From assembly GCF_046105845.1 (NCBI RefSeq), contig NZ_CP151004.1: DNA of 64,000 bases; one strand, given 5' to 3'. Positions 2,792 to 46,494 of this stretch are shown one piece after another. A model generated the notes under the pieces. That model made no database searches and was not told where the DNA came from. It was given only the letters and a program-made list of their open reading frames with translations. The DNA comes from Escherichia coli (GTDB lineage Bacteria > Pseudomonadota > Gammaproteobacteria > Enterobacterales > Enterobacteriaceae). Each line of letters begins with the position of its first letter. The stretch's first letter is position 1. The position numbers and the translations under genes are program-made.

Positions 2792-4387
<1,596 letters not shown>

Positions 4388-4394
4388 GGGGTAA

Positions 4395-5786
<1,392 letters not shown>

Positions 5787-38486: not shown

Positions 38487-38680
38487 TTGTCTGTCCGGCA
38501 GTGCGTTTCGTTATGTTTTGTTTTAGAGATGTAAAGAAATAGCATGGCAAAAATCCGAAGTATAGCGACTTATTTGCGCATTAATGCCGTCGTAAAGGGT
38601 GACTAACGAATCAACTGTTAAAGAAAAGTAAATTCAGCTAAGTTGATTGCTTACAAAAGATGAAATTCAGAGGCGGTAGA

Positions 38681-39580
38681 ATGTCGCGAAAAGATGGGGT
38701 GTTGGCGCTACTGGTAGTGGTCGTATGGGGGCTAAATTTTGTGGTCATCAAAGTGGGGCTTCATAACATGCCACCGCTGATGCTGGCCGGTTTGCGCTTT
38801 ATGCTGGTTGCTTTTCCGGCTATCTTTTTTGTCGCACGACCGAAAGTACCACTGAATTTGCTGCTGGGGTATGGATTAACCATCAGTTTTGCGCAGTTTG
38901 CTTTTCTTTTTTGTGCCATTAACTTCGGTATGCCTGCTGGTCTGGCTTCGTTGGTGTTACAGGCACAGGCGTTTTTTACTATCGTGCTTGGCGCGTTTAC
39001 TTTCGGTGAGCGACTGCATGGCAAACAATTGGCGGGGATCGCCTTAGCGATTTTTGGCGTACTGGTGTTAATCGAAGATAGTCTGAACGGTCAGCATGTG
39101 GCGATGCTCGGCTTTATGTTGACCCTGGCGGCAGCATTTAGTTGGGCGTGTGGCAACATCTTCAATAAAAAGATCATGTCGCACTCAACGCGTCCGGCGG
39201 TGATGTCGCTGGTAATCTGGAGCGCATTAATCCCAATCATTCCCTTCTTTGTTGCCTCGCTGATTCTCGATGGTTCCGCAACCATGATTCACAGTCTGGT
39301 TACTATCGATATGACCACCATCTTGTCTCTGATGTATCTGGCGTTTGTGGCGACAATTGTTGGTTATGGGATCTGGGGGACGTTACTGGGACGCTATGAA
39401 ACCTGGCGGGTTGCACCGTTATCGTTACTGGTGCCCGTAGTAGGACTGGCAAGTGCGGCACTATTGTTGGATGAACGCTTAACGGGTCTACAATTTTTCG
39501 GGGCGGTGCTCATTATGACCGGGCTGTATATCAATGTATTTGGCTTGCGGTGGCGTAAAGCGGTAAAGGTTAGAGGCTAA
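38681..39580 (+). CDS. eamA: DMT-family cysteine/O-acetylserine exporter
   Basis: Start trimmed to ATG 38681 (MSRKDGVLALLVVVVWGLNFVVIKVGL...), 299 aa, two EamA repeats. ORF track begins at 38660. Confidence 0.9.
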   Translation: MSRKDGVLALLVVVVWGLNFVVIKVGLHNMPPLMLAGLRFMLVAFPAIFFVARPKVPLNLLLGYGLTISFAQFAFLFCAINFGMPAGLASLVLQAQAFFTIVLGAFTFGERLHGKQLAGIALAIFGVLVLIEDSLNGQHVAMLGFMLTLAAAFSWACGNIFNKKIMSHSTRPAVMSLVIWSALIPIIPFFVASLILDGSATMIHSLVTIDMTTILSLMYLAFVATIVGYGIWGTLLGRYETWRVAPLSLLVPVVGLASAALLLDERLTGLQFFGAVLIMTGLYINVFGLRWRKAVKVRG

Positions 39581-39585
39581 ACCAT

Positions 39586-39629
39586 ACGCACAGAATGTGA
39601 TGTCAGCACTCTGTGCGTCTGCTTTTATC
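39586..39629 (+). terminator. Intrinsic terminator after eamA
   Basis: 9-bp stem ACGCACAGA / TCTGTGCGT (15-nt loop) followed by CTGCTTTTATC; the stop codon of the downstream minus-strand regulator lies inside the U-tract. Confidence 0.6.
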
Positions 39630-40323
39630 GCGGGAAAAAGTACTTTACCTGGAACTCGAAAATATTGCTGTAAAGTAACGAATAATCCAGCGGAATAGAG
39701 TTACTATCCACAGCCTGGGTCTGAATTTTAAGTATGGGATCCCGTGGGCTGATCCGTAAAATACTGGCGATTTCTGGGGTAGGAAAAGTAGGGGAGAAAG
39801 TTTCAAAGGTGCCAATGATTTTGATCCCGCATTCGTTCTCAATATACGAAAATTTGGATTTTTGCATATGTGCTACGGTTAAATCAGGAAAACGTGCCAC
39901 TGACATCCACGTTTCTTCTAATTGTGCTGCATTATCCTCAATGAATCGCAGTCTCTTTATGTAATAAACCTGCTCACCAGTCACTAAATTCAGCTCAGTC
40001 GCAATAGGGGGAGAAGCATCCTGCACTTCAAATTTCATAATCTGACTTCCTGCCTCCTTGCCGCTTTTATGCGCAATTTCACTGAAGCTGTTCATGTGAT
40101 CAATGTGTGCAACAAAATTCTTTTTTTGAATGTATGTTCCTGAACCATGCTTTCTATGAATAACTCCTTCGCCTTCCAGCAAGGATAATGCCTTACGCAG
40201 GGTATTACGCGAAACATTATAACGAACAGCGAGTTCAGCTTCTGACGGCAACAAATCACCAACATGCCATGAATAGCCATTGATCTCGGATTTAAGTAAG
40301 CGGGCAATCTTTTGAAAAATCAC
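39625..40323 (-). CDS. bgcR: GntR/HutC-family transcriptional regulator (wHTH + UTRA effector domain), divergent from the PTS operon
   Basis: 232-aa ORF with GTG start; N-terminal GntR HTH (LPSEAELAVRYNVSRNTLRKALSLLEGEGVIHRKHGSGTYI) and HutC-type C-terminal domain. Symbol assigned by architecture match to the bgc locus, not sequence-verified. Confidence 0.8.
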   Translation of the reverse strand: MIFQKIARLLKSEINGYSWHVGDLLPSEAELAVRYNVSRNTLRKALSLLEGEGVIHRKHGSGTYIQKKNFVAHIDHMNSFSEIAHKSGKEAGSQIMKFEVQDASPPIATELNLVTGEQVYYIKRLRFIEDNAAQLEETWMSVARFPDLTVAHMQKSKFSYIENECGIKIIGTFETFSPTFPTPEIASILRISPRDPILKIQTQAVDSNSIPLDYSLLYSNIFEFQVKYFFPR

Positions 40324-40482
40324 TTTTGCACCTTTTAAGAGCCATTGAAAACAAGGGGTTGAGTCCTGATTGGTTTATCGTATGGCCGAGTCGTTTAATT
40401 ATTACCCTGATGTTGAACAACTTTATTGCTGTATTACTGTGATCAATGTACCAGGACGTATAGCTACTGCGGGATATGATAT

Positions 40483-40495
40483 TTACACAATGTAA
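40483..40495. promoter_or_regulatory. Candidate operator palindrome in the regulator/PTS divergent promoter region
   Basis: Perfect palindrome TTACA-caa-TGTAA 27 bp upstream of the EIIB start codon; a CRP-like half-site (TGTGA at 40438-40442) lies about 45 bp further upstream. Confidence 0.3.
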
Positions 40496-40521
40496 TCTGT
40501 TATATACCAGTAAGGGAAAAT

Positions 40522-40833
40522 ATGAAAAAGATATTGTTAGTTTGCGCTGCGGGCATGTCAACCAGTATGCTGGTTAAACGTATGATTGATCATGCTAACG
40601 CTATTTCACTTGAAGTTAATATTTCCGCATTGGCGATTGCAGAGGCTAAAGGGAAAATTAAAAATAACGAAGTTGACGTTGTTTTACTTGGCCCGCAAGT
40701 TCGCTTTCAGAAACCAGAGATTGAAGCTGTTGCACAGGGGAAAATGCCTGTAGCTGTTATCGAGATGAAAGACTATGGCACCATGAACGGACAGGCAGTT
40801 CTTGAATTTGCGATGAAACTACTGCAAGAGTAA
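40522..40833 (+). CDS. bgcE: PTS EIIB component, lactose/cellobiose family
   Basis: 103-aa ORF MKKILLVCAAGMSTSMLVKRM... with phosphorylatable Cys in LVCAAGMSTS; AAGGGA RBS. Symbol by architecture match to bgcEFIHA. Confidence 0.85.
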   Translation: MKKILLVCAAGMSTSMLVKRMIDHANAISLEVNISALAIAEAKGKIKNNEVDVVLLGPQVRFQKPEIEAVAQGKMPVAVIEMKDYGTMNGQAVLEFAMKLLQE

Positions 40834-40947
40834 GAATCTAATATTATTAAACTATTACCTGAACTAACTTTTCACACATCATAAAATGGATATGGCATAC
40901 ATGCTTTATTGGGATGTATAAATATCCAGAACAGCAGGTATAAAAAA

Positions 40948-41819
40948 ATGGGATTAATGGCCTCATTCGAACGTGGAATGGAACGTTTTCTTGTTCCAGT
41001 TGCTATCAAGTTAAACTCACAAAAACATGTTGCAGCGGTGAGAGATGGATTCGTTTTTACGTTTCCAATTATTATGGCAAGTTCATTAATTATATTAATT
41101 AATTTTGCCATATTATCGCCAGACGGTTTTATTGCCGGATTACTGCATCTGAATAGCATTTTCCCCAACCTTGAAAAAGCACAAGCTATTTTTACTCCGG
41201 TAATGAATGGTTCTGTAAATATCATGTCAATTATGATTGCTTTCCTGGTCGCCAGGAATATGGCGATTAGCTATGAGCAAGATGATCTTTTATGCGGATT
41301 AACGGCAATAGGAGCATTTTTTATTGTTGGGCCGCTCAACACGGCACTACCTGGGGCGCGCCATATCCGATTACCTGGACTTCTATTAATGATGCATTCG
41401 CCAACTGCGGCGGTTCAGGTATGACGTTGGGGTTATTGTTGGCTATTTTTATCGCTTCTAAGCGTGCGGAATACCGTGATCTGGCAAAAATGTCATTTAT
41501 CCCCGGTATTTTCAATATCAATGAACCGATAATGTTCGGCCTTCCTATTGTACTTAACCCCATCATGATGGTGCCGTTTATTCTGGTTCCCATTGTTAAC
41601 TGTGCCATTGGTTACTTCTTTGTTTCGATGGAAATTATTCCACCGGTTGCTTATGCCGTGCCCTGGACTACGCCCGGACCTTTAATTGCTTTCCTCGGAA
41701 CCGGGGGAAACTGGCTGGCGTTACTGGTGGGTTTTTTATGTTTAGGTGTGGCGACAATGATCTATTTACCTTTTGTTATTGCCGCCAACAAGGTCAATAA
41801 CATGACAACTAACGGATAA
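40948..41819 (+). pseudogene. bgcF: PTS EIIC component (lactose/cellobiose family) disrupted by an out-of-frame internal deletion
   Basis: ORF-track pieces 40909-41424 and 41292-41819 align to the N-terminal ~130 and C-terminal ~160 residues of ChbC-type EIIC in different frames. Total span ~290 codons versus ~440-450 for intact EIIC; frame switch near 41333-41337. Confidence 0.75.
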
Positions 41820-41846
41820 TCCCATTTACACAGGAAGGAGATGTTG

Positions 41847-42158
41847 ATGTTTGCAGATGAAGAACTTGTTATGGAGTTACTGGTCAACGCAGGACAGGCT
41901 CGTTCTGATGCGATGGAAGCCATACGTTGTGCCGGGCAAAAAGACTGGCAGGGCGCAACTCAGCTAATGGCCAGTTCTGAATGCGCCTGTCTTCAGGCGC
42001 ATAAGATTCAGACCGCGTTAATTAGTCAGGATGAAGGCTGTGGCAAAATAGAAGTTAATTTAATTCTGGTTCATGCACAGGATCATTTGATGAATGCAAT
42101 ATTATGCCAGGATTTAGCCAGGGAAATTATTTCATTAAGAAAAGAGCTCCATGCCTGA
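41847..42158 (+). CDS. bgcI: PTS EIIA component, lactose/cellobiose family
   Basis: ChbA-like sequence (...EELVMELLVNAGQARSDAMEAIR...LILVHAQDHLMNA...); start placed at ATG 41847 because GGAAGGAG abuts the track start at 41841. Confidence 0.85.
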   Translation: MFADEELVMELLVNAGQARSDAMEAIRCAGQKDWQGATQLMASSECACLQAHKIQTALISQDEGCGKIEVNLILVHAQDHLMNAILCQDLAREIISLRKELHA

Positions 42159-42210: not shown

Positions 42211-45349
<3,139 letters not shown>

Positions 45350-45405: not shown

Positions 45406-45624
45406 CTACATAGCGTGTTGATTATAATAGGGCACGCCGAGCGCATCCGACTTATCACTGCCAGTACCCATGTGATTTAAATCAAACGGTGGTTGTTCCT
45501 GCGATGGGGGAACAACCACGACATTGGCACAGGAAGTAACAACCTGCTGCGTGGTTTGTTCCGCAATGCCCTGCGTGGAAAAGAGAATAAACGCAGCTGC
45601 TATTGCGGATAAAAGTGGTTTCAT
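45406..45624 (-). CDS. marB: Multiple antibiotic resistance protein MarB (periplasmic)
   Basis: 72-aa ORF with signal peptide MKPLLSAIAAAFILFSTQGIA; last gene of marRAB. Confidence 0.9.
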   Translation of the reverse strand: MKPLLSAIAAAFILFSTQGIAEQTTQQVVTSCANVVVVPPSQEQPPFDLNHMGTGSDKSDALGVPYYNQHAM

Positions 45625-45655
45625 GATTGCCTCAGTGACGTTGTCACGTTATCAA

Positions 45656-46039
45656 CTAGCTGTTGTAATGATTTAATGGATGTAAAAAGCGCGATTCGCC
45701 CTGCATATTGGTCATCCGGTATTTATGTGGCGGAACATCAAAGTAATTTTTGAAGGTTCGGGTCAGAGTTTGTTGCGACTCGAAGCCATATCGTTCTGCC
45801 AGATAGAGTATCGGCTCGTTACTTTCCTTCAGCTTTTGCGCGATTTCCGTCATCTTACGGCTGCGGATGTATTGGCCTAATGAATGACCGGTTTCTTTTT
45901 TAAACATCCGTTGCAGGTGCCATTTAGAGTAACCCGAACGCTCTGACACTTTCTCCAGTGACAGTGGCGATTCCAGGTTGTCCTCGATCCAGTCCAAAAT
46001 GCTATGAATGGTAATAGCGTCAGTATTGCGTCTGGACAT
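45656..46039 (-). CDS. marA: AraC/XylS-family activator MarA
   Basis: [48 protein letters not shown]... matches MarA (127 aa); start at ATG 46037-46039 has better SD spacing than the track start at 46045. Confidence 0.95.
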
Positions 46040-46059
46040 CGTCATACCTCTTTTTTTGT

Positions 46060-46494
46060 TTACGGCAGGACTTTCTTAAGCAAATGCTCAAGTGTTGCCA
46101 CTTCGTCCGCCGTCAGGTTTTTTGTTAATTCTTGATGCAGGTCCTGGCCAACTAATTGATGGCATTGTTCACATATTGCCGCGCCGCTGGTGGTAAGTTT
46201 TACCAGTACGCCGCGCTTGTCATTCGGGTTCGGCAACCTTTCCACCCAGCCTTTACAGACCAGGCGATCCAGCATACGGGTCAGCGCTCCCAGGTCGACC
46301 GACAACACTTTTTTCAGTTCAACCGGAGTAATACACGCCGCGCAGCGGATAGAGCAGAGCACCTTAAACTGTGCCGCGGTAATATCCAGCGGAGACAGAT
46401 ACTCATTAAGCAGGCGATCTTTCTTCTGATTAACCATATGGATTAAGCGACCCAATGGAATAATTTCATTGAACAGATCGCTGGTACTTTTCAC
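46060..46494 (-). CDS. marR: MarR repressor of the mar operon (variant with Ser103 and His137)
   Basis: 144-aa ORF with GTG start ([46 protein letters not shown]...); codon 103 is AGC (46186-46188) and codon 137 is CAT (46084-46086). Confidence 0.95.

Follow-up and report, generated by a model that had tools for sequence, protein, structure and literature searches.

The 198-nt interval at positions 40324-40521 of the window (the whole 64,000-nt stretch of E. coli DNA that was analyzed) lies between a GntR/UTRA regulator gene on the minus strand and a divergent PTS IIB gene on the plus strand, and is very probably the already-studied control region between bgcR and the bgc operon. We propose that, in this region, bgcR is read from the minus strand and an IIB-IIC-IIA-porin-phospho-beta-glucosidase operon from the plus strand, the latter from an activator-dependent promoter that would lack a -35 element and would use the -10 hexamer TATGAT (40475-40480, plus strand), with transcription most likely starting at about 40487. 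CRP-cAMP bound to TGTGATCAATGTACCA (40438-40453, plus strand), centered at -41.5, would drive the operon in a class II arrangement, and the locus regulator would most likely bind a 34-bp inverted repeat at 40389-40422, centered at about -81.5, from which it would serve as a co-activator that helps CRP and RNA polymerase when beta-glucosides are present. Taken as a whole (bgc identity, class II CRP promoter, and regulator at the repeat), we consider this model likely. The transcription start and the assignment of proteins to elements are predictions, built on elements, conservation and fixed spacings that we observed directly.

The regulator gene, probably bgcR, occupies 39625-40323 on the minus strand in the list of open reading frames (ORFs) and encodes 232 amino acids from a GTG start that is preceded by AAGGTG. 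Pfam assignments precomputed on near-identical proteins give PF00392 (N-terminal GntR wHTH) and PF07702 (C-terminal UTRA), and the protein therefore has the wHTH-plus-UTRA architecture of the HutC subfamily. Its NCBIfam matches are to HutC-type models only (PhnF, TreR, and HutC), every one of them below the equivalog cut-off, and RefSeq labels it a GntR family transcriptional regulator. On the plus strand, the first gene of the operon encodes a IIB protein of the PTS lactose/cellobiose family (40522-40833; 103 amino acids; probably bgcE), and is preceded by the RBS AAGGG at 40512-40516. It is followed, on the same strand, by a two-ORF remnant of a PTS IIC gene (40909-41819), and by genes for IIA (41841-42158), a LamB-like carbohydrate porin (42214-43806), and a 6-phospho-beta-glucosidase (43904-45349). 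The IIB, IIA, porin, and glucosidase genes were assigned from ORFs, family matches, and RefSeq, and the IIC remnant from its ORFs, comparison with the intact copy of strain 2012C-4221, and a search with the deletion junction. The order of the operon is thus IIB-IIC-IIA-porin-glucosidase, and RefSeq strains have the same arrangement with IIC intact.

Several copies of the operon carry lesions. Relative to intact E. coli copies, IIC in the window has an internal deletion of ~450 nt (junction at ~41328) that leaves ORFs of 171 and 175 amino acids, and, given this deletion, we take the permease to be dead in this strain. Among the complete E. coli genomes listed, none was seen to contain the deletion junction, and the matches came as two pieces 572 nt apart. 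The porin gene differs from that of strain 2012C-4221 by a 2-nt deletion near 43751 (GTA--TTAGG versus GCATTTTAGG), which shifts the C-terminal reading frame and yields a protein of 530 rather than 557 amino acids. The porin gene of strain NY1601 is likewise frameshifted, and strain 2012C-4221 is itself missing ~90 nt near the 3' end of its glucosidase gene. The operon therefore seems decay-prone. It resides in an island between eamA and marB(-marA-marR), with flanks at 38660-39580 and 45406-46494 of the window, and 2551 of 5426 complete E. coli genomes (47%) contain the segment from the regulator to IIB. In strains without the island, eamA and the mar genes are presumably adjacent, which would make this a simple presence/absence insertion point.

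The bgc locus of E. coli is marked by a GntR-type regulator that diverges from an IIB/IIC/IIA/phospho-beta-glucosidase/porin operon, and this arrangement is what the window contains. Neelakanta, Sankar and Schnetz reportedly described, in 2009, a porin gene, bgcH, within the bgc operon, along with bgc expression that depends on CRP under the positive control of BgcR, and single-base promoter mutations that activate bgc; the published locus is said to be that of strain i484/CFT073. Specific names in the style of bgcR were sought on the proteins, which carry generic names only. In PMC3585215, BgcR is described as the GntR-type positive regulator of the E. coli bgc operon, which encodes PTS IIB, IIC, and IIA together with a phospho-beta-glucosidase, and the cryptic beta-glucoside operons of E. 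coli are given elsewhere as bgc, chb, asc, and bgl (PMC4488073). Our identification of the interval rests on gene order, on this secondary description, and on what the primary work reportedly found.

To compare the interval across species, a regulator profile search with one genome per species gave 44 loci, 21 of which have the divergent regulator/IIB arrangement with an intergenic distance of 186-200 nt; the remaining loci include some in which the divergent gene encodes IIC or the glucosidase. We aligned 22, and then 31, intergenic regions from Escherichia, Citrobacter, Salmonella, Superficieibacter, Raoultella, Klebsiella sp., Kluyvera, Pseudocitrobacter, Cedecea, Buttiauxella, Ewingella, Erwinia, and Yersinia. 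Mean column identity is 56%, and the invariant columns fall into five tight groups: the RBS and start of the regulator gene, a TGTTT block, the GT and T..AC of the inverted repeat, GTGA.C, and the A and T of a TAnnnT hexamer.

The fourth of these groups belongs to a CRP-like TGTGA-N6-TACCA, which the preliminary description had placed at 40438-40453 and which is located exactly there. TGTGA at 40438-40442 matches all five bases of the left half-site and TACCA at 40449-40453 three of the five bases of the right, with six bases in between and the center of the site at 40445.5. The element resembles the TGTGA-N6-TCACA 16-mer, its TGTGATC coincides with seven consecutive positions of the CRP consensus, and the 22-mer at 40435-40456 matches that consensus at 12 of 22 positions. 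Judged by pattern alone, however, the site is marginal. In 2000 dinucleotide-preserving shuffles of the 198-nt interval, which we used for all chance tests, a bare TGTGA or TCACA turned up in 40% of shuffles, and TGTGA-N6 followed by at least three of the five TCACA bases in 4.8%. Support for a CRP-like site comes instead from conservation, with GTGA (G119, T120, G121, and A122) and C124 invariant, and the preceding T near-invariant, in the 31 orthologous regions (~12 genera). The right half varies with lineage, and matches at three of five positions in E. coli, four of five (TAACA) in Citrobacter, Salmonella, and E. phyllosphaerae, and one of five in Kluyvera and Raoultella. Because this half is weak, CRP may need help to bind.

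The predicted -10 hexamer of the operon promoter follows at a fixed distance. A156 and T160 are invariant, T155 nearly so, and the two invariant bases correspond to the -11 and -7 positions of a -10 element. In 28 of the 30 tabulated rows, the distance from the 16-mer to a TAnnnT hexamer is exactly 21 nt, one of the two failures being a slip in parsing the table, and the hexamer reads TATGAT in E. coli, TAAAGT in Kluyvera, TACAGT in Raoultella, TAAGTT in Cedecea and its relatives, TAATAT in Citrobacter, and TAACAT in Salmonella. No -35 element accompanies it, as the hexamer found 17 nt ahead of it, CAGGAC in E. coli, is unlike a -35. A scan of the interval with the sigma-70 consensus likewise found no plus-strand promoter with a -35, as would be expected of an activator-dependent promoter that lacks this element, and its three minus-strand matches do not exceed the number seen in shuffled sequence. 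If transcription starts 7 nt after the -10, the CRP-like site is centered at -41.5, which would be the geometry of a class II CRP promoter, with the start predicted from the -10 alone. In E. coli 20KM2222 (locus L052), an IS1 element sits directly after ...CCAGGACGTA, which corresponds to about position 40460 of the window, between the CRP-like site and the -10. The insertion separates the operon from the activator sites of that strain, or could supply a new promoter.

Upstream of the CRP-like site lies an inverted repeat that is absent from the preliminary description and is located ~80 bp upstream of the palindrome that was singled out there. Its left arm, AGTCGTTTA (40389-40397, plus strand), contains the core GTTTA at 40393-40397, which is GTTCA in most genera; the right arm, TGAACAACT, is at 40414-40422 on the same strand; and between them is an A+T-rich spacer (40398-40413) with a fixed length of 16 nt and a free sequence. 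The whole repeat, A-N3-GTTCA-N16-TGAAC-N3-T, is centered at 40405.5, and the E. coli core reads GTTTA...TGAAC (40393-40418). From 84 arms we derived the box A-N3-G-T-(T/G)-C-A, in which GT is found in 84 of 84 and the outer A, four bases outside the core, in 80 of 84. The conserved arms thus start with an invariant GT and end with AC, and mean pairwise identity is 77% in the arms versus 47% in the spacer.

We scanned all of the DNA that had been fetched (394 kb) for the repeat, at first allowing one mismatch; a two-mismatch scan added one region. Together, the scans recovered the repeat in 30 primary regions, of which 29 have no more than one mismatch among the 10 core bases and one has two, and a weaker copy, which keeps the N16 spacing, was seen by eye in the E. 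psidii region. Scattered matches elsewhere in the 394 kb (~19) compare with ~12 that, by our own estimate, are expected by chance. The repeat is present whether the divergent gene encodes IIB, IIC, or the glucosidase, and the distance from the repeat to TGTGA is 18-19 nt in all 30 tabulated regions (one row having been mis-parsed). The lineages with a 19-nt gap are five (E. coli, E. albertii, Superficieibacter, UBA5654, and Yersinia), and all others have 18 nt. The left arm is, in addition, degenerate (GTTTA) in E. coli and E. albertii. The 19-nt gap, the GTTTA arm, and the weak right CRP half (TACCA) could contribute to the crypticity that has been reported for the operon in E. coli.

In 12 loci, from Cedecea, Buttiauxella, Klebsiella sp. 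and relatives, a second copy of the repeat is found downstream of the regulator gene, where it precedes a separate unit encoding a ROK-family kinase and/or a 6-phospho-beta-glucosidase (L013, L014, L017, L019, L022, L023, L025-L028, and L030 at ~4228-4400, and L040 at ~3745). All 12 second sites, like the 30 primary sites that the scans recovered, preserve the N16 spacing. In addition to the repeat, the second control regions carry a TAAC...TGT element and, ~54 nt beyond the repeat, a tandem ACAGGTTCAAAAGTTGTTCA whose period is 11 bp. The L023 version of the tandem, AGAGGTTCAAAAGTGGTTTAA, almost matches the regulator gene's own RBS and start, a hint that the control region was duplicated long ago; the copies at the second promoter could, in part, reflect such a duplication rather than independent selection. 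In Kluyvera cryocrescens (L007, ~560-660), the regulator gene and the repeat are kept, but after the right arm (...GAACAACTTGGCCGCCGTTAAGGAAGG...) there is neither a TGTGA site nor a PTS gene; the control region was apparently severed by a rearrangement, immediately ahead of the CRP-like site. More distant paralogous regulators at 42-47% identity (L031-L033 and L039) lack the repeat, and could not be used as an independent test.

Based on its conserved arms, free spacer, fixed distance to the CRP-like site, and recurrence at the second promoter, the repeat is the likelier site of the regulator, and the best candidate that we have for it. A center at about -81.5 is a position for an activator, and fits a positively acting BgcR rather than the operator of a repressor. 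A spacing of 21 bp between the centers of the half-sites is unusual for a HutC-type dimer. We put forward only tentatively, and with somewhat less than an even expectation that it is right, the more specific proposal that the regulator reads 9-nt A-N3-GT(T/G)CA boxes, which lie either two helical turns apart in a wide inverted repeat or in tandem with 11-bp phasing, rather than a compact palindrome, and that from about -81 it would act as a co-activator and recruit CRP to a one-sided class II site, in a configuration shared by at least 12 enterobacterial genera and employed again at a second promoter.

The roles of the two upstream elements could be distributed differently. The TAAC just 5' of TGTGA is nearly invariant in the 31 regions, so that conservation reaches 4 nt beyond the CRP-like site, which is more than CRP is known to need, and part of the TAAC-TGTGA block could belong to another protein. 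Carried further, this would make the invariant block TAACTGTGATC the site of the locus regulator, or a part of it, rather than that of CRP, and leave the repeat to a nucleoid protein, an UP-like element, or the divergent promoter of the regulator gene. The poor right CRP half in several genera would suit such an assignment, as would the occurrence of TAAC-N3/4-TGT in the second control regions and near the promoter of the regulator itself. We nevertheless think it unlikely, since a class II CRP site would account for both the fixed 21 nt to the -10 and the missing -35, TGTGATC follows the CRP consensus through seven consecutive positions, and the operon is reportedly CRP-dependent. Moreover, conserved arms around a free spacer, in a repeat that follows the regulator gene to a second promoter, are typical of the site of a specific factor.

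The regulator-gene side of the interval has conserved elements of its own. Invariant alignment columns coincide with the start codon and with the RBS region, AAAGGTGCA on the minus strand (40327-40335). In most genera, the RBS and start read GGAGGTTCAAAAGTGGTTTAC, which is like the tandem GTTCA boxes of the second promoter and is found at an equivalent distance; the region may serve autoregulation, or its sequence may be due to nothing more than RBS and coding constraint. Further upstream of the gene, a TGTTT-N3-A block at 40345-40353 on the minus strand (TTGAAAACA on the plus strand) has A30 and A33 invariant, and T25, A29, A31, and C32 nearly invariant, in the 31 regions. It probably belongs to the regulator gene's core promoter, and is without the canonical A at -11.

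Such features raise the question of whether the regulator binds the repeat mainly for the autoregulation of bgcR, while the operon is under the control of CRP and some site that we did not recognize. The repeat is, after all, upstream of both divergent genes, and the second regions share the regulator-side layout of a repeat, ~54 nt, and GGTTCA boxes. We regard this as quite unlikely, given that a constant 18-19 nt separate the repeat from the CRP-like site in all 30 tabulated regions, which argues for joint action on the operon promoter, and that the regulator is reported to activate the operon (PMC3585215).

The preliminary description had suggested, as a plausible operator, a perfect palindrome, TTACAcaaTGTAA (TTACA-caa-TGTAA), at 40483-40495, on the ground that HutC-family repressors bind short palindromes. 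Most HutC-family regulators are indeed repressors. The palindrome exists as described, on the plus strand with 26 nt between its end and the ATG of the IIB gene at 40522, and would straddle the predicted transcription start (-5 to +9). Perfect 5+5 palindromes with a loop of 0-8 nt, however, occur on average 2.08 times per shuffle of the interval, and at least once in 82% of shuffles; with a loop of exactly 3 nt, they are found in 22%. The palindrome is also polymorphic within E. coli, with the variant TTAAAcaaTGTAA in O104:H4 and O121, and TTACAcaaTGTAG in Nissle, 2022CK-00450, and Z1323CEC. It is broken in five of the seven intact alleles that were sampled, in which the flanking elements are identical (the eighth sampled allele is interrupted by IS1, and is without the palindrome region); 40411-40456 and the -10 are unchanged across the same strains in which the palindrome varies. 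Over 40385-40521, only 15 of ~2500 genomes reach 99% identity to the window, which makes the perfect palindrome a minority allele. At the same position, E. albertii has TTATGaaaTTTAA, in which the palindrome is lost, and it is also absent from 29 other orthologous loci and from all of the other genera aligned.

A second element in the preliminary description, GTATAGCTAC, is present on the plus strand, although at 40458-40467 rather than at 40457-40466, i.e., one base away from where it had been put. It falls among the 21 variable nucleotides that separate the CRP-like site from the -10, and lacks conservation, its counterparts being GTGTAGCTAC in Nissle, GCGTGTTTAG in E. albertii, and unrelated sequence in other genera. 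The 31-region alignment contains no conserved columns in either the palindrome or GTATAGCTAC.

Nor does the palindrome resemble the compact HutC-type operators of GmuR and BguR. The operator of GmuR, a HutC-type relative, is tAAATGTaTAGACAttTa, and that of BguR is likewise compact (PMC3585215). An exact GT-N-TA-N-AC core is absent from the interval, and the best match in the interval to a GmuR/BguR-type box (ATGTNTANACAT) has two mismatches (40479-40490); over the whole window, the same scan gave 26 matches versus 29.9 expected, which is chance level. It is therefore very unlikely that a HutC-type repressor sits on the palindrome over the start and keeps RNA polymerase out until it is released by an inducer, despite the perfection of the palindrome in this window and its predicted location in a classical position for a repressor: its equal is common in shuffled sequence, it is not conserved among E. 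coli alleles or orthologous loci, there is no above-chance box of the GmuR/BguR type in the interval, and the premise of a repressor is doubtful, since BgcR is described as a positive regulator in PMC3585215 and the candidate site that we favor is ~80 bp upstream of the predicted start. From conservation and chance frequency, we judge the palindrome and GTATAGCTAC to be incidental sequence, and would not annotate the palindrome as an operator.

Other candidate elements in the interval were rejected as well. The ATGTACCAG/ATATACCAG repeat, the near-palindrome CTGTTATATACCAG (40497-40510), and a pair of 17-nt arms at 40363 and 40441 are either confined to E. coli and E. albertii or unconserved, and TTGAAC (40413-40418) does not qualify as a -35, as no -10 is found at a distance of 16-18 nt. 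A permissive Rfam scan of 39500-41200 matched no family.

The system is already known in outline, and as a described cryptic beta-glucoside system of about half of E. coli strains it offers little beyond annotation. What our analysis adds is a testable promoter map, with a predicted CRP site at -41.5, a -10, and a candidate 34-bp regulator site. The wide spacing of the repeat may be of interest for DNA recognition and activation by the HutC family and, if the wide-box co-activator reading were true, it would amount to both an unusual binding mode and an unusual role, that of an activator, for a HutC-family protein.

Among known systems, the closest is bgc of E. coli itself, with which the locus shares the divergent GntR-type positive regulator, the PTS IIB/IIC/IIA and phospho-beta-glucosidase genes, and a variable presence (47% of genomes). 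The copy in the window differs in its deleted IIC gene, and nothing that we found in comparing gene order and description contradicts the identity; the 34-bp repeat and the -41.5 geometry were derived here. With the compact operators of HutC-type regulators (dre of DasR, and those of NagR, GmuR, and BguR, with GT-N-TA-N-AC cores), the locus has in common the wHTH and UTRA domains of its regulator and the GT...AC rule of the arms. It differs in that the half-sites are 21 bp apart, center to center, rather than within a ~16-bp palindrome, and in that the bgc regulator is reported as an activator and not a repressor (PMC3585215).

The operon promoter is like class II CRP promoters of the galP1 and melR type, in that a TGTGA-N6-TnnCA element 41.5 bp upstream of the predicted start appears to replace the -35, with the -10 at a fixed distance. 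It departs from them in its weak right half and in the conserved upstream site at about -81.5, which suggests co-dependence on a second activator and would make it more similar to promoters served by CRP plus a specific activator than to simple class II promoters. The chb (chitobiose/cellobiose) operon of E. coli is such a case: it also encodes a PTS of the lactose/cellobiose family, with beta-linked disaccharides as substrates, depends on CRP and a specific activator, and is cryptic for cellobiose, and its regulators are the AraC-type activator ChbR and the repressor NagC. The bgc-type locus described here differs from chb in having a GntR/HutC regulator and other DNA motifs.
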